Source: an uncultured Cytophagales bacterium
Lineage (GTDB): Bacteria > Bacteroidota > Bacteroidia > Cytophagales > Bernardetiaceae
Length of the DNA stretch: 64,000 nucleotides
NCBI GenBank assembly: GCA_963719525.1
Contig: CAVRCG010000004.1
Location: 861,579 to 925,578 of the forward strand
Direction of reading: 5' to 3'
Positions 23,228 through 32,881 of the stretch are shown piece after piece. The translations under genes were made by a program, and so were the position numbers. The notes beneath the pieces are model-generated. The model saw only the letters and a list, made by a program, of their open reading frames with translations, was not told the DNA's origin and did not search any database. Numbering within the stretch: position 1 is the first letter of the stretch; each line of letters begins with the position of its first letter.

Positions 23228-23477
23228 AGAGTAGGGTTTGGGTTAGTAAAAATATAAAGGTAGAGAAATAATAGCTTTTTTTCAAGTAAGATTTTATTAC
23301 TACTATTTTGATAGATTTTCTGAATAAAACAATCTACCAATTTCAATTTTTAGGAAAAATCAACATATAATCAACACCTTTATTCAAAATAATTGCTAAC
23401 ATTATCCGTATATTTGTTAATATAGTATTGACTAAATTTTACTTTAAATTATTCATTAAATTTTACCTAATTCTCTA

Positions 23478-26400
23478 ATGAAAAATAATTCTATTTCAAA
23501 ATATATCTACTGCAAAGAAATTCGATTTCTTTTGTTAGTTGGTTTCTTATCTATTTTAGGCTCAACTCAACTCTTTGCACAAACCTATTATTCTAGAGCT
23601 ACTGGAGATTGGAACAATCCTAACACGTGGAGTACAGTAGCTTGTGGAGGAACGGCTGCTGCAACTATTCCTACTACTACGAGTAATGTTATTATTTGTA
23701 CTGGAAATACTGTAACATTAAATATTGCAGCAACTTGTAATAATCTTACTGTAAATAATACAGGAACTTTGCAAATAACTAATTTTAACTTTACTGTCAA
23801 TCAAACCACTACTATCAATACAGGAGGAATGATTGATGATAATGATCAAGGAGGAAGTAACACATATGCTACTATTATCAATAATGGAACTTTTACTGCT
23901 AATCTTGCAGGAACACATACTACCTTTTTTGGAGGTAATATTACTAACGACGGTACATTTTCTCTATTAGGTTCAAGTCAATATGCTTTTACAAGTGATT
24001 TAATAATTACCAATAATGGAGGCAATATGCGATTTAGTTCAAACTCTGCGAGTGGAGGTTGTTCTATTAATGCTGGTACTACTGTTACGATTGCCAATGG
24101 AACTTCTACAGGTTTTGTGGCTCTTTATGCCAATGTAGTTAATCTTAATGGAGCAATTAATAATAACTATAGCAATGGGCGATTGCGATTAAGTAAGTTC
24201 AATGGAACAGGAACAGTTACCAATTCAGGCTATATTTATTATGAATCTACTAATACTCCTCCTACTGCAAATCTTGTTAATAATTCAGGTTCTACTTTTG
24301 ATTATGCCTATGATAGCCAAGTAAAATTAGTTACTTATAGTAATCTCGTGTTTTCTTATTCTAGCTCTTTCGCTAGTGGTTTGATAGGAGATATAACAGT
24401 AAACGGAAATTTATCTATTATACACCCTAATACTATATTGAATGCCAATACGCACAACATAGATATAAAAGGAAATTGGTCAAATACAGGTACTTTTAAT
24501 GGAGGCACAGGAACGGTAAGTTTTACAGGAACAACCAATCAAACCATAGATGGCAGTACCTCTTTCAACAATCTAATTGTTAATAATTCTAATAATGTAA
24601 CAATAAATAATAGCAATAATGCAGCTACTTCCAATTTGACACTTACAAATGGAAACGTGATATTAAATAACGCTTCTAATTTAGGTTTCAATACCATTAC
24701 TGGAGCTAACGCTACAAAATATATTGTTACTAACGGTACAGGGAGTTTGAGAAAAATAACTGCAGCTACAAATGTTGTTTTTCCTGTAGGAAACGCTTCT
24801 AATTATCAACCTTTGCGCTTATCTACTGCTGCTGCAAGTTCAGACGTTCGTTTTGGAACAGGACTCAATACTCCTGCTGGTGGAGTGGGTTCGTGGTTTG
24901 TAAACAATGGAACAACTGCTTCTAATCTAACAGTATTAAATCCACAAGGAGGAACTCTTTTACCCACCTCTAGAATTAGTGTAAATTCTTCTGGTTGGCT
25001 TCCACTAGCAACTACGTTTGCTTTCTCTGCTTACAGTACCACTTCGCCTTTTGCCTTTGCTACTACTCACGAGTTTTCTGTATTTAGTGTTCCTACCATT
25101 AATCTTTCTGTAAGTTCTAATGCAGGTTCGGAAGCAGCAGCTACTTCTATTACCGTAACAGCAACAGCTTCGACAGCAGTAGTGGGAAATCAAAGTGTAA
25201 ACTTAGCTATTACAGGAACAGGAATTACTACAGGAGATTATACATTGAGTAATGCTACAATTACTATTCTTGATGGACAGACTGTAGGAACAGTAACTTT
25301 TACAGTTGTAGATGATGCACTGGTAGAAGGAACAGAAACAGGCTATCTTGACTATCAATACACCTTCACAAGGAGTACTTTTAGGAACAACTACTACACA
25401 GAATGTCGTCATTACTGATAATGATTCTGAAGCAGAAATCAATCTTCAAGGAAACGCAAATAATATTAGTAGTGGAACTACTACTACAAGTGCAGTAAAT
25501 AATACAGATTTTGGAAATGTTTTGGCGTGTGGAGCAAATACAGTTTCTAAAACCTTTGTTATTCAAAATACTGGAACTTCTGTCTTAAATATTACAGGGA
25601 TTTCTATTGGAGGAACACATGCTACTGACTTTACATTAGGAACTGTTCCTACAACAGTCGCAGGAAATAGCAATCAAAGTTTTGTTATCACTTTTGATGC
25701 TTCTGTAGCTGGAAACAGAACTGCTACAGTAAGCATAAGTAGTAATGATACTGATGAAAATCCATACACTTTTGCTATCAATGGAAATGGAATTGATAGA
25801 GAAATTAATGTTTTAGGAAATTCGGTTTCTATTACAGATGGAGATACTTCGCCAGATGCGAGTGATAATACAAATTTTGGAAATACAGCTCTTCCTAAAA
25901 CTATGAGTTATACCATTCAAAATACAGGAACAGAGGTACTTACTATTTCTTCAATTACTTCAAGTAACACGGCTGATTTTACCATAACAGGAACAGTTCC
26001 TACTTCGGTAGCTGCTGGTGGAAATGCTACATTTGATGTTACCTTTACCCCTTCTACATTAGGTTTGAAAACAGCGACTATTACCGTAAATAACGATGAT
26101 TGTGATGAAGCAACTTTTGATTTTGCAGTACAAGCAACGGTAATAGTTGCTCCAACTCAACCCGTAGGAAATAGAGGACTTTATTTTGATGGCGTTGATG
26201 ATTATGTGAATATAGGAACATCTAGTAAGATTAATTTTTCAGGTAGTGATAATTTCACTATCGAAATGTGGATAAAAAGTAATGGTACTGGAGGAATGTT
26301 GTTTGACAAAGTCCCTCTTTTTCCTTCTCTTCCAAATACATTAGGAATATGGACACAAATTGATGCTAGTGGTATTCTTTCATTTCATTTAGGTAAAGAA

Positions 26401-29400
26401 GGAACAGGATGGGACTTCTTATCTACTACTGATCCTGTTCAAACTAATCGTTGGACACATGTAACATTTGAGAAGCAAGGTAGTACCTCTAGAATTTATA
26501 TAGATGGAATACTCAAAGCATCTAGAAATTTGCCAAATTCTTCTACTGCTATAGCTGATGCTTCTCCTGCAAATTTAGGTAGGTTTAGAAGAGAACCTGC
26601 TTTTAAGTATTTTGGTGGACAGATAGATGAATTTCGTTTATCAAACAATTCTAGATATGGAGGAGCTGCTTTTACTCCACAAGAGAGTTATACAGTTGAT
26701 CTAAATACTATTTTGTATTATCCAATGAATGAAGGTACAGGACAAACAGTTGCAGATGCTTCTGCTAATCCATTGATTGCTAGTTTGGGAGAAACTACAG
26801 CAGCAGAAACTCCTATAGACCCTCTTTGGGCATTGCGAGTGAAAAATGTAAATAATACTGGTTCAGAAAGTATTGTAGAAGTGATAACACAATCAAACGC
26901 ATTAGCTGGTAGAAATTATGTTGATTTTAGTATTGACAACACAACACCTACTGTTCGTACTATCGCTTTAACTGGTGCATTGAACGTAACTGAACAAGTT
27001 CTTATCAATGGATATTCAGCTTTTGGTAGTGATACAGAATTGCGTATAGACATAAATGGAAATACAAACAATATTTTCAATTTTAATTCTAATAATTCTA
27101 CTCTACAAGGACTGATTATGCGAGATGCTGGTTCAGCAGTCAATGTAAATGCTGCAAATAATGGCAATAAAATTTCTAGAAATAGCATTTTTAATAATAC
27201 TGTTGGTATTAATTTGAATAGTACAGGAAATGGAGGTAAAGTTGCTCCTGTAATCACATCTGCTACTATTAGTCTTATTTCAGGAACTTGTGCTACTTGT
27301 GTTGATGGAGAAGTGATAGAATTATTTAGAGATAATCTTACTACACCCACAGCAAACAAACAGGGAAAAGAGTATTTAGGTACAGCAACAGTTACCTCAA
27401 ATGCTTGGAGTATGGCAGCACCGTTTACCATGACACTTAGTTTGGGCGACTTCATAACTGCTACAGCTACCAATATTACTTCCAATAATACGTCTCCCTT
27501 TTTCGACGGCTTTTCCTATCGTAGATATTATCTTAGGGACAATTACACCTACTACCTACTGTACAGGTTCGACAATTACTATTCCTTTCACAACTGGAGG
27601 AGCATTTAATACTGGAAATACATTTACGGCTCAATTATCAGATGCAAGTGGTAATTTTGGAACACCTACAGCAACGCAAACAGGAACAAGTTCGATTGCT
27701 TTAGTCATTCCAAATACAGCACCAGCAGGAACAAATTATAGAGTGCGTGTGATTTCTTCAGATCCAGTTATAACTAGTAATTTGTCACCTGTACTTACTA
27801 TTAGTGTACTTCCTTTGGATAGAACAATTGTAGCAAATCCTGCTACTATCAATTCAGGAACAAGTAGTGTTATTGAAGTTCCCAATTCAGAAACAGGAGT
27901 TTCTTATCAATTACAAGATGTTACCAATGGAAATACAGATGTAGGAACAGCTTTAATAGGAGATGGAACAACGCTTTCTTTGCCCACTCAAACCCTTACA
28001 GCCACTAATGATTTCAGAGTAGTTGCTACCAGAACAGGTTGTTCAATTACTCTCAATACAGTAACTGTAATTACCTCTTCTGGTGATGTTCTGTTAGTAG
28101 AAACAGGAGTTAATTATCCAACTATTCAAGCTGCCGTAAATGATGCTGTAGCAGGAAATACAATCCGTCCTCTGACTGCTAGACCTTATCCTGAAAGCGT
28201 AGTAGTAGATAAAAACCTTACCTTTACTTCTCCTACTCAGCCTATTTTTGATGATTATAGAAGCATAAACATCAATGGTATAACTGTAAGTACAGGAATT
28301 AGCCTAGTTATTGATGGCAATATGAGCGTGAACAAAGTAGTAGAAATGGAAGGAACAGCACAAATGAGCGTTGTTGGAGGTAGAGATTTTGCCCTTCGTT
28401 CAACGATAACCGAAACGGCACTACTAATAAATGGTTCTACTACAAACACAATTGTTGGAAACGTAATTATGGAAAGATATATGCCAACTGTTTCTGATTT
28501 ATCAGGTGGCTATGATGCACAGGCGTATCATTTGTTCTCTTCTCCATTTTCTAATTCAACTATTTCACAGTTTGGAGATGATATGAGTTTGGTTTTGAAT
28601 ACAGCTTATAATACAGCACCAGAACCTGCTTTTGTACGTCCTTTCCCTACGTTTTTTCATTATGTAGAAACAAATGGTAGAGCAAACACAAGTGCATATT
28701 ACAATCCGTTTATTTCAAACTATAAAGTTCCTACAGGTACAGGTTTAGAAATTGCTAGAGGCTATCAAGCTAATATTGCCACAACAACAACGGTAGATTT
28801 GAATGGTACACTAAACAATGGTAATATTTCCATTGCAGTAACTAATTCTAGTGGAGATGCAGCCGATGGATATAATCTGGTTGGTAATCCATATCCTTCT
28901 CCAATTGATTGGGATTTGATTCATGCAGCTTCTTCAAATGTAGAAAGTGCGCTTTATTTGGAAATTCCGACAAGTCAGTACGACGGACGTTTTGCCGAAT
29001 ATGTAGCGGGAACAGGTGTTATAAACAATGGAGGTAAAAAAGAAATTGCCTCAATGCAAGGCTTTTTTGTCAGAACAACGGCTGGAGGAACGGTTAATAT
29101 GAATAATACAGTTCGTCTTGATGCAGATGCTCGTTTTTATAAAACTACCGAAACCGAAGACCTAAAAGAAGGCTTAGTAAGAGTAGCTTTACAGGGAAGT
29201 AATTCGTTAGACGAAACAACAGTTTATTTCCAAAACGGTGCAACTTCTAACTTTGATGGAAAGTATGATGCAGCCAAAATCCATAAGTTCAATAGTAAAT
29301 TATCTACTTTATATTCTTACAATGAAGATGCAGAAACAGCAGAATATTTTGCCATTAATGGTTTGGGAAGTTTTGATTCTGATCAGACTTTACCTTTAGC

Positions 29401-29866
29401 AATGAATATTCTGACAGAAGGCGAATATGAAATTACACTTCGTACAATGAAATATTTCCATTCTAAACACGAGCTTTATTTATATGATTCTTTGACAGAT
29501 TCGCTTCATAATTTGCGTGCAGAAGGCGATTATAAGTTTGCAGCTACAAAAGGCTACGAAGTAAAACGTTTCGTTCTTTTATTCAAAACAGATGCAAATC
29601 AAGACTTCTTTATAGATGAGAAAGTGGTAGTTTATCCAAATCCAACTCCAGATGAATTTTCATACAGTTTGAAGACAGATAGAGAAGGAGACTATACAAT
29701 TCGTCTTTTTGATGCAACTGGTAGAGTACTATTTGAAGAAAGCAAAACAAAAGAAGGTGCATTTTTAGAAGGAACATTAAGTTTAGAAAAACACGCTGCT
29801 GGACTTTATTTGCTGCAAGTATCTGATGCTCAAAAAACAGTTACAGTACGTGTTGTGAAAGAATAA
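23478..29866 (+). CDS. giant T9SS-secreted adhesin of about 2100 aa (Calx-beta, Ig-like repeats, T9SS type A C-terminal sorting domain), present as three ORF fragments joined by two single-base frameshifts
   Basis: The fragments are 23478-25418, 25348-27609 and 27743-29866. Junction 1 near 25345 splits a Calx-beta domain (VDDALVEGTETGYL | TINTPSQGVLLGTTTTQNVVITDNDSEAEI). Junction 2 is in a T-run near 27500, after which the +1 frame reads an Ig-like domain (TITPTTYCTGSTITIPFTTGG...). The C-terminus VVVYPNPTPDEFSYSL...LYLLQVSDAQKTVTVRVVKE is a type A (Por_Secre_tail) sorting domain. Confidence 0.75.
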
Positions 29867-29885: not shown

Positions 29886-29961
29886 CCTCAACGACGGTGA
29901 AACCTCGTTGACGGTTAAAAAATAAAGCAAAATAACCGTATTGATTAAACTCAATACGGTT
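29886..29961. terminator. two consecutive palindromic hairpins (a REP-family member and AACCGTATTGA-TTAAAC-TCAATACGGTT) 3' of the adhesin gene
   Basis: CCTCAACGACGGTGAAACCTCGTTGACGGTT at 29886-29916 and a perfect 11 bp stem at 29934-29961. No clear T-tract follows, so these may be REP elements or a factor-independent terminator. Confidence 0.4.
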
Positions 29962-30008
29962 AATTTTTCAAAAAACAAAACACAATTTACTTATAAATCA
30001 ATCAAATT

Positions 30009-30227
30009 ATGTTCAAAAAAATTGTATTACTCCTTATCGGATTTTTTATTGTAGATTTTGCAATGGCACAAGGGGGAGGGTTTCCTGTTAATCCAAATGC
30101 TATCGGTGCGCCAATAGATGGAGGGCTTTCCCTTTTACTAGCAGCAGGAGCAACATATGGAGCTAAAAAGGTCTATGACTATAGAAACAAAGACAAGCAA
30201 AGTGAAGATGAACAAGAAATGAAGTAA
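30009..30227 (+). CDS. tiny secreted protein with an exosortase-type C-terminal sorting signal (PIDGG motif, TM helix, KK); candidate XrtF substrate
   Basis: 72 aa. The signal peptide MFKKIVLLLIGFFIVDFAMA is followed by QGGGFPVNPNAIGAPIDGGLSLLLAAGATYGAKK and an acidic tail. The layout parallels PEP-CTERM (motif, TM, basic cluster). It lies directly upstream of xrtF. Confidence 0.55.
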   Translation: MFKKIVLLLIGFFIVDFAMAQGGGFPVNPNAIGAPIDGGLSLLLAAGATYGAKKVYDYRNKDKQSEDEQEMK

Positions 30228-30374
30228 AATAAATCTTTTTTTGTCTTATCTATTTAGCAAAAATAGCTATTCAATTTATTTCAAACTTATAAAAAGAGTG
30301 AGAAATAGAATGTTGAATGGCTATTTTATTTTGTATATTTCAATTTTAAAAAACCAGACATTTCAAAAGTAAAT

Positions 30375-30893
30375 ATGAAAAATCCTGTTACATGTTTTGT
30401 TATTTTATTTGTAGCTATTTATGGAAGTTGGTATTTATTATATGAACTTTATTTAGCTAGAAATACGTCTATTGATAGAATTTTGATAGAAGTAGTAGGT
30501 AAAAGCAGTACAGAATTACTGACTTGGCTTGGCTTTGATGCTTCTTATCAAGTTTTGCCTCATACGGTTTCTCTTAACTCTTTAGTCTGCGTTTCGGTAG
30601 GTGCGCCTTGTAATGGTCTTGCCCTTTTTGCGCTTTTTGCGTCCTTTATTTTGGCTACACCTGTTTCAATAAAACCAAAATTAGTGTTTATTCCTTTAGG
30701 AATTATTGTAATTTTTTTATTGAACATAATTCGCATTTCAGCTCTTACTCTAAATGTTAAATATTATCCTGAAAGTGTAGAATTTAATCATCATTATTTA
30801 TTTACTTTCATTGTCTATGGGGTTACTTTTTGGATTTGGATGATTTGGGTAAACAAATTTATGATTCCTAGTTTAAAGAAACAACAAGACTGA
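30375..30893 (+). CDS. xrtF: exosortase family protein XrtF
   Basis: 172 aa multi-TM protein with the conserved exosortase Cys (VGAPCNGLALFALFASFIL) and Arg (NIIRISAL) motifs. The size is typical of the short Bacteroidetes-specific XrtF class. Confidence 0.75.
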   Translation: MKNPVTCFVILFVAIYGSWYLLYELYLARNTSIDRILIEVVGKSSTELLTWLGFDASYQVLPHTVSLNSLVCVSVGAPCNGLALFALFASFILATPVSIKPKLVFIPLGIIVIFLLNIIRISALTLNVKYYPESVEFNHHYLFTFIVYGVTFWIWMIWVNKFMIPSLKKQQD

Positions 30894-30918
30894 TTTTATA
30901 GTAAAACTTCTAACCATT

Positions 30919-31297
30919 TTGCAAAAAAAAACACCTTATTTTTTACATATTACTGGAATTATCTTGCTATTTTTAGTATGGTTCTTCTTAGGAATGAGTC
31001 GGATGAAATTAGCCGAATACATCTCTAATACATTTCCAAATATTCCTTTTATATCGGTCACTAGATATGGGAATGATTAGCCTGTTGTTTATTCTGCTCA
31101 ATGGAATTATTATTTGGGTTTGTTTTTCTTCTCTTTCTATTCTCAAAAAAACGCTGGCTGTTCATCTCTCAGTTTATGTATTTATTGTTACTTTGACGTT
31201 AGCTTACAAATTCTTCGAAACACGTTTCTTATTCAATTTATCCGAAAATCTACTTCGTTTCTTCTTTTCTCCTTTGATTCCTCTTTTTTTATATTGA
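30919..31297 (+). CDS. exosortase F system-associated membrane protein, probably frameshifted near 31060
   Basis: A hydrophobic small protein immediately after xrtF. It reads in two frames: LQKKTPYFLHITGIILLFLVWFFLGMSR...ISVTRYGND stop, then MGMISLLFILLNGIIIWVCFSSLSILKKTLAVHLSVYVFIVTLTLAYKFFETRF.... The 76 aa downstream ORF alone is short for this family. Confidence 0.4.
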
Positions 31298-31402
31298 TTT
31301 TTTATACAATAAGAAAATTAGAAGAGTAAAAGCTATGTAGGTATAGAAAAACAATCATTTTCTTTTCCATTCTCTAATTCCTATTCCCTAATTCTAAGAA
31401 AT

Positions 31403-32881
31403 TTAATCTTCTTTGTCCAAATCTCTTTGGCGTACTTTTCTACCTACCAAAAAGCTCAAACCTAAAATTAAAACAAGTAAAATAGCAATTCCATTGATTC
31501 CGTATTTTTCCCACCTTATTTCATTTTTACTTCTCAAATTGTTGCTCTCCTCATTAATTCTATCATAAAAAGAACCCAAATCAGCATTTCCAATAGAAGC
31601 ATTCTTTCTGCTTTCACCAGTTACACTTAAGGTTAGGGACGAAACAAGAGTGTCATAATCCCCTTTCTTAGTATTAAAAAAGATATAATTAAAATAATCT
31701 TTCATTGGATAAAGACCTGGTTCGTTTGGAATAATATAATAATTAAAATCCTTCGTTCCATAAACAGCATTATTATTTCTTCGTAACATTTCGGAAATAG
31801 TAGGTTCATAAAAATCAAAATTACCTGTCTTGGGCAGGTTTGGCTTATCTATAACAGACAAATTTCCTTCTCCTTCTATTCTAAATTGATATTGGACACT
31901 TTTTCCAGTCTCAACGTTTGTATTCGAAACCTGCTCTTTCAAAATATAATTTCCTACAGGAACTTGGTCTTTTAATGGGTGTGGAGGTAATTCTTTCACT
32001 ACCATAGAAATAGGGTCACTATAATAAGTCTTTATATTTTCTTTCATTTGATTAAAAATACTTTGTGAATTTACGGCTACATCGTATTTTACCATTTTAA
32101 AAGGAATAGCAGGAATAGAAATCTTTTGAGGACTAAGAGAATAAAAAACAGCTTGATAAACTTTATATTGGCGATATTCTTTCCCTCTTATTTTTACCAT
32201 TTCTGGAACAGGCTGAATAATATTAAAATTTTCCTCCAACGTATTTTTTGGTTTTATTTGCTTTAATATTTCTGCTTTCTGTTCTCCTAACTCATAAAAA
32301 TTAAGTGTTGCACGATTAGAAACGGCTACATAAAATGACATTGTAATAGTAAAACCTTCGCCTACATAAGGGTTTTCTTTATTGGTTGTGATGGCAAAAA
32401 AGGCATCATCTTTTACCGATATATATTCTGTATTTTCGGTTTTGCCCCAAAAACTATCAAACGGATTTGTGGTAGTGGATTTGCCTTTTACGTCAATACT
32501 TGCGCCTGCATGACGAACCTGCTCGCCATTGACAGTCATAGTAAAAGGACGCAAAAAATAAGTTCCCTGTCTAGAAGCTCGGTAACGCTGAGTAACGGCT
32601 TGCGTTTTGGAAACTTGTCCGTTTACAAAATTTATTGATTGCGAAGTATATATTTCTGCTTTGTTCATTCCGTTTATTTTAGGAAATTCAGAATATTTTT
32701 TCAAATTATCATCTTTTACAGTAACCGTAACTTCAAAATCTTCGTTCAAACCGATAGTTGTAGTTCCTACTTGTAGAGTTATCTCCTGACAAATACCAGT
32801 TGTGGGAATTATAAATTCCATTACGAAAACTAGAAAACAGACACTAATAAATCTTAATTTGTTGAAAGCTAATAAGTTCAT
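31403..32881 (-). CDS. BatD family protein (aerotolerance/oxygen-tolerance operon-type membrane-anchored protein)
   Basis: 492 aa with an N-terminal signal peptide, a large extracytoplasmic domain, a C-terminal TM helix (ILLVLILGLSFLVG) and a basic tail. Confidence 0.6.
   Translation of the reverse strand: MNLLAFNKLRFISVCFLVFVMEFIIPTTGICQEITLQVGTTTIGLNEDFEVTVTVKDDNLKKYSEFPKINGMNKAEIYTSQSINFVNGQVSKTQAVTQRYRASRQGTYFLRPFTMTVNGEQVRHAGASIDVKGKSTTTNPFDSFWGKTENTEYISVKDDAFFAITTNKENPYVGEGFTITMSFYVAVSNRATLNFYELGEQKAEILKQIKPKNTLEENFNIIQPVPEMVKIRGKEYRQYKVYQAVFYSLSPQKISIPAIPFKMVKYDVAVNSQSIFNQMKENIKTYYSDPISMVVKELPPHPLKDQVPVGNYILKEQVSNTNVETGKSVQYQFRIEGEGNLSVIDKPNLPKTGNFDFYEPTISEMLRRNNNAVYGTKDFNYYIIPNEPGLYPMKDYFNYIFFNTKKGDYDTLVSSLTLSVTGESRKNASIGNADLGSFYDRINEESNNLRSKNEIRWEKYGINGIAILLVLILGLSFLVGRKVRQRDLDKED

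Follow-up and report, generated by a model that had tools for sequence, protein, structure and literature searches.

A 72-Residue Protein with a PID-CTERM Sorting Signal Next to an Exosortase X Gene, and the Pairing of Such Mini-Protein Genes with Genes for RemA-like Adhesins

Introduction

On which protein does the exosortase of a Bernardetiaceae bacterium act, and can a neighbouring protein of only 72 amino acids be its substrate? The question is raised by a locus in the stretch of DNA analysed here, called the window (64,000 nucleotides of an uncultured Cytophagales bacterium; GenBank assembly GCA_963719525.1, contig CAVRCG010000004.1, positions 861,579 to 925,578). In this locus, a mini-protein gene, an exosortase gene, and a membrane-protein gene follow one another on the plus strand. 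An initial annotation of the window took the enzyme for XrtF and the mini-protein for a new type of exosortase substrate. As far as can be read from sequence, and with a probability of about 80%, the locus belongs instead to the XrtX/PID-CTERM sorting system, in which the mini-protein would be processed by XrtX and such mini-proteins would be partners of RemA-like adhesins. The system itself is already represented in databases, and since the NCBI and Pfam curators had modelled it, the finding as initially submitted adds little alone. What has not been reported previously is that nearly every mini-protein gene is preceded by a gene for a RemA-like adhesin. It is this pairing, together with a protein family lacking cargo, that makes the locus worth following up.

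The Mini-Protein and Its Family

The open reading frame (ORF) at 30009-30227 on the plus strand encodes a protein of 72 amino acids, MFKKIVLLLIGFFIVDFAMAQGGGFPVNPNAIGAPIDGGLSLLLAAGATYGAKKVYDYRNKDKQSEDEQEMK. As had been noticed initially, it has a signal peptide and an exosortase-type sorting signal. The signal peptide (amino acids 1-20, nucleotides 30009-30068) is of the n/h/c type, MFKK-IVLLLIGFFIVDF-AMA|Q. It is followed by a 14-residue linker of Gly, Pro, and Asn (30069-30110), the PIDGG motif, 15 small or hydrophobic residues, KK, and a charged tail of 18 residues, predicted to be cytoplasmic, which runs with the stop codon to 30227. The initial annotation had described the mature part as PIDGG, a helix, and KK; these three elements are present, but the linker and the charged tail were left out of that description. 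Residues 35-57 (nucleotides 30111-30179) match the NCBIfam model NF046080 of the PID-CTERM domain with 43.5 bits, above the cutoff of 26 bits (E 2e-11). The match ends 15 residues before the C-terminus, and the layout of a motif, a hydrophobic helix, and a basic cluster is present. The same layout was found in all of the 59 mini-proteins examined from other loci, which bears out the likeness to the tripartite PEP-CTERM and PGF-CTERM signals that had been pointed out.

The mini-protein is a member of a large family of similarly small proteins. Its 56 close homologues are 44-89 amino acids long, and the Pfam family PF28310 (PID_CTERM) is recorded for every one of them. A profile search reached 3675 cluster representatives at E ≤ 1e-3, the best 150 of which are 54-125 amino acids long throughout. 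The NF046080 match and this family of homologues exclude the reading of 30009-30227 as a chance ORF. A scan of the Pfam library left the mini-protein unmatched, although PF28310 stands in the precomputed tables. Several Bernardetia orthologues are already annotated as "PID-CTERM protein-sorting domain-containing protein", and it is therefore not the case that no cognate substrate family had been described, as was initially supposed for the XrtF class: both NF046080 and PF28310 are curated.

An alignment of 36 proteins from distant taxa (alignment A1) revealed the invariant residues P35, I36, D37, G38, G39, L40, S41, L43, L44, A45, A46, G47, G51, K53, and K54, that is, the tail pattern PIDGGLS-LLAAG--G-KK. 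Gln21, the first residue after the predicted signal peptide, is conserved in at least 90% of the sequences. The Bernardetia mini-proteins have an additional acidic extension of about 15 amino acids beyond the basic cluster. At least three paralogous mini-proteins with 75% identity (P0001, P0009, and P0012) are encoded by the genome from which the window derives, all of them on a single contig of 3.8 Mb. A metagenome contig (L081, 344-556) has an identical copy of P0012 with no xrtX beside it; the gene on the 3′ side of this copy encodes an M43 peptidase with GEVED and type IX secretion system (T9SS) tail domains.

The Enzyme

The next gene, at 30375-30893 on the plus strand, encodes a polytopic protein of 172 amino acids. 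It was rightly recognised as an exosortase gene, since it matches the exosortase/archaeosortase signature TIGR04178 (52.3 bits). The best-scoring exosortase model is that of exosortase X (XrtX; NF046081, 184 bits with a cutoff of 170). The XrtF model TIGR04128, to which the enzyme had been assigned, comes second with 93.1 bits (cutoff 90), 91 bits below the XrtX model. Because the NF046081 score is twice the TIGR04128 score, the enzyme was assigned to XrtX and not to XrtF. Consistent with this, a Bernardetia orthologue bears the name "exosortase X" in UniRef, whereas XrtF is the name in older records of relatives. Haft (preprint 10.1101/2023.06.07.544157) describes a triad of Cys, Arg, and His in exosortases and archaeosortases. 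The putative catalytic residues of the window enzyme are Cys79 (30609-30611), Arg120 (30732-30734), and His139 (30789-30791), all three of which are invariant among 22 XrtX sequences. No solved structure with a sequence relationship to XrtX was found.

Mini-Protein Genes beside xrtX

Is the neighbourhood of the two genes common? An alignment of XrtX homologues led to 80 loci from different genomes, including Hymenobacter, Bernardetia, many metagenome-assembled genomes (MAGs) of Flavobacteriales and Bacteroidia, and a Chitinophaga-labelled MAG, and all six frames of these loci were searched with a hidden Markov model (HMM) of the tail. Co-occurrence was thus judged by gene neighbourhood and not by genome-wide presence or absence. 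A PID-CTERM ORF lies 8-364 bp upstream of xrtX on the same strand in 57 loci and just downstream on the opposite strand in 2; in another 2 the contig end is too near to decide, and the remaining 19 gave no strong PID hit. No further PID tail was found anywhere in the approximately 1 Mb of flanks around the 80 loci. The co-localisation of mini-protein genes and xrtX is far beyond chance. The check proposed with the initial annotation, namely whether short ORFs with a PIDGG tail co-occur with the exosortase, turned out positively, and the two outcomes that would have spoken against it, a tail no commoner near the exosortase than elsewhere and an ORF not conserved among relatives, were not encountered.

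In the 19 loci without a strong PID hit, the enzyme is still best hit by the XrtX model in every case and lies above its cutoff in 17. Five Hymenobacter XrtX loci (L005-L008 and L010) have no adjacent mini-protein gene; in two of them (L005 and L006), a long ORF on the opposite strand, resembling a MoxR-type ATPase by eye, abuts xrtX. Ten diverse mini-proteins of other loci were compared with NF046080; all ten match, and nine lie above the cutoff. The tenth is a variant (L071, 3339-3599) in which P-L-D-S-S replaces P-I-D-G-G, scoring 22.8 bits, just below the cutoff. Its gene is flanked by a RemA-like gene and by an xrtX gene whose product scores 168 bits, with a cutoff of 170.

When the search started from the mini-proteins, a different picture emerged. 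Among 85 motif-selected mini-protein genes with at least 900 nucleotides of downstream sequence, xrtX is adjacent in 29, and no exosortase gene exists anywhere on the locus in 55.

RemA/RemZ-like Adhesin Genes Upstream of the Mini-Protein Genes

What, then, accompanies the mini-protein genes? It was found that approximately 85-90% of them lie directly 3′ of a large gene for a T9SS cargo protein. Of the stand-alone mini-protein genes with at least 1 kb of upstream sequence, 57 of 58 are preceded by a same-strand ORF of at least 100 amino acids that ends within 700 nucleotides. Among 84 upstream ORFs, 69 have the Por_Secre_tail domain of T9SS type A cargo and 6 have CHU_C. For comparison, Flavobacterium johnsoniae has 52 proteins with such a C-terminal domain (CTD) in all (PMC9127263). 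When the CTDs were removed, 76 of 77 upstream proteins fell into a single BLAST cluster. Common to them is a module of about 420-450 amino acids that immediately precedes the CTD and contains the motifs GW-L-GNPYPS-IDW and QGFFV; Pfam and NCBIfam have no model for this module. In all the sequence gathered, the module was found in 109 of 1917 ORFs of at least 150 amino acids, and 92 of these 109 lie immediately upstream of a PID mini-protein gene. A link to T9SS cargo in general was considered and rejected: only 6 of about 100 adjacent upstream ORFs with a CTD do not have the module, and 4 of these are short fragments. The mini-protein genes are linked specifically to the module-bearing proteins.

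A profile built from 70 modules was compared with the PDB. It reached RemA (8gl6_D, E 1e-49, residues 887-1385 of 1436) and RemZ (8gl8_D, E 2e-46). RemA is the gliding adhesin of F. johnsoniae and RemZ is its homologue, both being T9SS type A substrates (PMC10994853). F. johnsoniae RemA alone has a known function as a mobile surface adhesin in gliding.

The window shows this arrangement too. At 27743-29866 on the plus strand, it encodes the C-terminal part of a large cargo protein of T9SS type A that resembles RemA/RemZ, with the pre-CTD module at approximately 28274-29533 and the Por_Secre_tail CTD at approximately 29630-29866 (40.3 bits for Por_Secre_tail and 43.7 bits for TIGR04183). Of 76 proteins whose genes precede other mini-protein genes, 53 align with the module region. 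By itself, the window protein reached only a CTD in the PDB, and RemA was not reached by phmmer; its link to RemA therefore rests on the 70-sequence profile. The mini-protein gene starts 142 nucleotides past the end of the adhesin gene (29866), and between them lies a bidirectional terminator-like hairpin (29933-29962) with a 12-bp stem and a T-run on both strands. Further upstream, overlapping plus-strand frames lie head-to-tail at 23460-25418, 25327-27609, and 27458-29866; the second has no CTD and the third has no signal peptide. Probably, 23460-29866 is one giant adhesin gene, starting around 23460, that is split by frame changes, which hints at indel errors of the assembly.

In the XrtX loci, a gene of the adhesin type lies directly upstream of the mini-protein gene in 27 of 60 cases. 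On the 3′ side of the mini-protein genes, a Pfam search revealed xrtX in 20 of 70 cases and a wza-type polysaccharide export gene in 9 of 70, with Wzc-like genes following in 10 loci. A stand-alone mini-protein gene followed by wza-type (Poly_export/SLBB) and wzc-like genes was seen in L100, L107, and about eight more metagenome loci. Through these genes, some mini-proteins are linked with exopolysaccharide loci in addition to adhesins.

A Sorting Signal without a Cargo Domain

How large is the part of the protein that the signal would sort? Since profile searches favour full-length mini-proteins, metagenome contigs were searched with a DNA pattern encoding only the tail P-I-D-G-G-x-S-x-L-x-A-x-G. 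A match was accepted as a true tail if it scored at least 20 bits with the HMM and was followed by a stop codon within 60 amino acids. This search gave 124 matches, 119 of which are true tails. They form 100 clusters at 70% identity and are thus largely independent of each other. Where the upstream frame is complete (112 tails), it is 49-187 codons long from stop to stop, and the length from the first Met is 54-184 amino acids with a median of about 71. With complete frames of at most 187 codons, the cargo is merely a Pro/Gly-rich segment of some 7-30 residues, and the PID-CTERM family as measured here is without a real cargo domain. The longer database entries that were inspected are miscalls of an upstream start codon.

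In the 59 mini-proteins from genome loci, the distance from the predicted signal-peptidase site to PID is 7-44 amino acids (median 19), and Pro and Gly account for 51% of these residues. The helix is exactly 15 amino acids long in 56 of the 59. Gln occupies the predicted +1 position in 41 of the 59, a count to be read with the fact that the site picker favours Gln. A two-cysteine motif, C-[WI]-P-P-P-C, stands directly before x-P-I-D-G-G in 25 of the 59, and its two cysteines may be joined in a disulfide loop at the membrane surface. This two-cysteine subfamily includes the mini-proteins of L022, L029, L036, L040, L045-L048, L050-L052, L054, L056, L059, L064, L068, L069, L077, and L078.

Proposed Processing and Alternative Explanations

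The 72-residue protein would be exported by Sec and cut by signal peptidase I after Ala20, which would leave Gln21 at the N-terminus. A Gln N-terminus after the signal peptidase cut is usual in Bacteroidota. The 15-residue C-terminal helix would then hold the protein in the inner membrane, with PIDGG on the periplasmic face and KK and the charged tail in the cytoplasm. According to the positive-inside rule, Cys79, Arg120, and His139 of XrtX are all predicted to lie at the periplasmic face of the membrane, the same face as the PID motif. XrtX, a putative four-helix membrane cysteine protease or transpeptidase, would recognise the PID-CTERM signal and cleave it, and the membrane protein encoded after xrtX may be its partner. 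Cleavage would remove the helix, leaving a Pro/Gly-rich peptide of about 14 residues that could be released or, more likely, transferred to a lipid or glycan acceptor. Transfer is the probable outcome by analogy with the lipid attachment by ArtA and with the cell association of PEP-CTERM proteins. The processed peptide would serve the RemA-like adhesin at the cell surface, for instance as an anchor, a tether, or a partner; this role is the most likely one because the mini-proteins are multi-copy, with one copy in cis to xrtX, and are paired gene by gene with RemA/RemZ-like genes. One may go further and suppose, tentatively, that the mini-proteins are dedicated partners of the RemA/RemZ-like T9SS adhesins and not sorted cargo at all, with XrtX producing a short membrane- or glycan-anchored peptide for the display of the adhesin encoded upstream. 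That extended form of the idea is more doubtful than not.

Several observations weigh against the processing by XrtX and the partnership with adhesins. About a quarter of the XrtX loci have no adjacent mini-protein gene, and about two-thirds of the mini-protein genes have no adjacent xrtX. The terminator-like hairpin parts the adhesin gene from the mini-protein gene in the window, and the partner gene of xrtX is frameshifted in this assembly. The predicted N-terminal Gln is likely cyclised, which argues against the α-amine of the peptide as the acceptor. No paper mentioning PID-CTERM or XrtX was found. In alignment A1, the tail is conserved far better than the linker, which suits a stable membrane subunit equally well as a cleaved signal. 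Such a subunit is the main rival to a processed substrate: the mini-protein would span the inner membrane once and stay uncleaved, with its helix as the functional part, and would serve as a subunit or regulator of XrtX and its partner, or else of the adjacent RemA-like adhesin's export and assembly. The invariance of PIDGGLS-LLAAG--G-KK across 36 proteins with a short ectodomain conserved in composition only, the nearly fixed helix length, the position of most mini-protein genes away from xrtX, and their one-to-one pairing with adhesin genes would all agree with it. However, a motif, a helix, and a basic cluster are the signature of cleaved sorting signals, the synteny with a Cys/Arg/His exosortase is strong, and the curators class PID-CTERM as a sorting domain. 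Fifteen residues are also short for a permanent transmembrane anchor. I regard the stable subunit as unlikely.

It may also be asked whether the mini-protein gives rise to a small peptide that is set free as a signal or as a product resembling the ribosomally synthesised and post-translationally modified peptides, with XrtX acting as a maturation protease only. Its ectodomain is very short, the C-[WI]-P-P-P-C motif could form a disulfide loop in the 25 mini-proteins that have it, and a dedicated protease gene adjoins the mini-protein gene. However, linkers other than those of the Cys subfamily show little conservation and have a low complexity, the genes recurring nearby are those of the adhesin, XrtX, and Wza rather than of modification enzymes or exporters, and the characterised relatives anchor their products instead of releasing them, all of which makes free release very improbable. 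The original view, that this is an XrtF system with the mini-protein as its previously unknown substrate class and a new exosortase substrate arrangement, is scarcely credible now. The enzyme does just clear the XrtF cutoff (93.1 against 90 bits), older annotations of its relatives say XrtF, and the substrates of the true XrtF of F. johnsoniae are still unreported. Against this, the XrtX model fits best at 184 bits and contradicts the XrtF assignment, a PID-CTERM model and PF28310 exist already, and orthologues already bear the names PID-CTERM and exosortase X. The cis-encoded putative mini-substrate as such holds, being found in 57 of the 80 XrtX loci, but not its novelty, since one-to-one "dedicated systems" with adjacent genes for an exosortase and its target were described by Haft (10.1101/2023.06.07.544157) and the target family of XrtJ is likewise a small whole protein.

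Comparison with Known Sorting Systems

How does the locus compare with the systems already described? The closest is the curated XrtX/PID-CTERM/XrtX-associated set (NF046081, NF046080, and NF046082; PF28310). The window tail and enzyme score above the curated cutoffs, and the order of the mini-protein gene, xrtX, and the membrane-protein gene is that of 57 of the 80 other XrtX loci. The differences are that the third gene of the locus is frameshifted and codes for a diverged relative of the NF046082 family that scores below threshold, and that the Bernardetia mini-proteins have the acidic extension.

The XrtF of F. johnsoniae (Fjoh_1448/Fjoh_1449; TIGR04128) represents the sister class of Bacteroidota exosortases, and a gene for a small membrane partner lies beside its own gene as well. 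The window enzyme differs in scoring double on the XrtX model, and the XrtF-associated model has no match in the window. In surface colonisation and biofilm formation, mutants of xrtF and of its partner gene are defective in the way that the T9SS attachment mutants porU and porZ are, and no XrtF substrate has been published (PMC10936215). This phenotype is consistent with the adhesin idea, but it concerns a sister enzyme.

PEP-CTERM/XrtA and PGF-CTERM/ArtA resemble the window system in having a tripartite C-terminal signal and a polytopic Cys/Arg/His enzyme. In those systems, cleavage is coupled to the attachment of an anchor; ArtA attaches a lipid, and PEP-CTERM proteins stay cell-associated (10.1101/2023.06.07.544157). 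Their signals are found on many proteins with real domains, whereas the PID carriers measured here have at most 187 codons and a low-complexity cargo. XrtJ, with its PExPT-CTERM target (TIGR04200, "targ_of_XrtJ", a whole-protein profile of 57 positions), is similar in that an enzyme is paired with a small target. As judged for XrtJ by its model only, the difference is that the PID-CTERM mini-proteins are multi-copy and are mostly encoded away from xrtX, beside adhesin genes.

The gliding adhesins RemA and RemZ, together with the anchoring of T9SS type A cargo by PorU, offer a further comparison, as the upstream gene of the window encodes a T9SS type A cargo protein with the pre-CTD module of RemA/RemZ, about 450 amino acids in length. 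PorU of Porphyromonas gingivalis removes the CTD and attaches the cargo to anionic lipopolysaccharide (A-LPS). For RemA, neither a small PID-type partner nor an exosortase has been reported, and no paper linking RemA with an exosortase was found beyond the colonisation screen.

The question of what an exosortase attaches to its substrate has stood since 2006. The XrtX/PID-CTERM system, which is not known to have been studied experimentally, is unusually tractable for this purpose: with a substrate of about 70 amino acids and an expected processed product of about 15-25 residues, mass spectrometry could show directly what is attached. The pairing with adhesins suggests a concrete phenotype, namely adhesin display, gliding, and biofilm formation, and gives a lead for the substrates of XrtF. 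If the mini-proteins are indeed partners of the adhesins, they would join the exosortase pathway to type IX secretion and the gliding apparatus, and would hint at what the Flavobacterium XrtF acts on.

The Third Gene and the Surroundings of the Locus

Is the gene after xrtX that of the usual XrtF-associated membrane protein, as had been assumed? The membrane-protein gene in the XrtX-associated position (30919-31329, plus strand) is spread over three frames: 30919-31080, 31067-31297, and the original frame again up to 31329. DNA alignment with the relatives L001-L003 revealed an extra nucleotide at about 31060 and a missing one in the T-run 31284-31290, two shifts that compensate each other. 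Programmed frameshifting was considered and rejected, given the compensating shifts, the intact relatives, and the upstream adhesin gene, which also switches frame twice. More probably, the shifts reflect an assembly error or recent decay, and as the large upstream gene is affected in the same way, assembly indels are a likely cause of the interruption.

The XrtF-associated model TIGR04127 has no match in the third protein. The protein also lies far below the cutoff of 75 bits of NF046082, the model of the XrtX-associated membrane protein: the fragment 31067-31297 scores 17.4 bits, the Bernardetia orthologue scores 20.2 bits, and the frame-repaired protein gave no match at E ≤ 0.01. The initial identification of this gene was therefore not upheld. 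An ORF of at least 100 amino acids lies directly 3′ of xrtX in 78 of the 80 XrtX loci, and the third protein is remotely related to such ORFs (hmmsearch E of about 1e-8 in a four-sequence target set; hhalign probability 74%), with which it has the motif L-x-x-x-L-x-x-F-x-x-SPL in common.

A scan for sigma-70 promoters detected none on the plus strand of the locus, and its site count was lower than in shuffled sequences; between 29540 and 32890, the plus strand is also free of the Bacteroidota -7 motif TAnnTTTG. The gap between the mini-protein gene and xrtX (30228-30374) is 147 nucleotides long and AT-rich and has no terminator-like site; gaps of a similar length, about 115-150 nucleotides, exist in Hymenobacter loci. 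A 43-residue ORF at 30241-30372 was rejected as a gene, having no family match and sitting in this conserved intergenic gap. After the locus, a BatD gene lies on the minus strand (31403-32881), possibly as part of a recurring neighbourhood with the Bat/aerotolerance operon.

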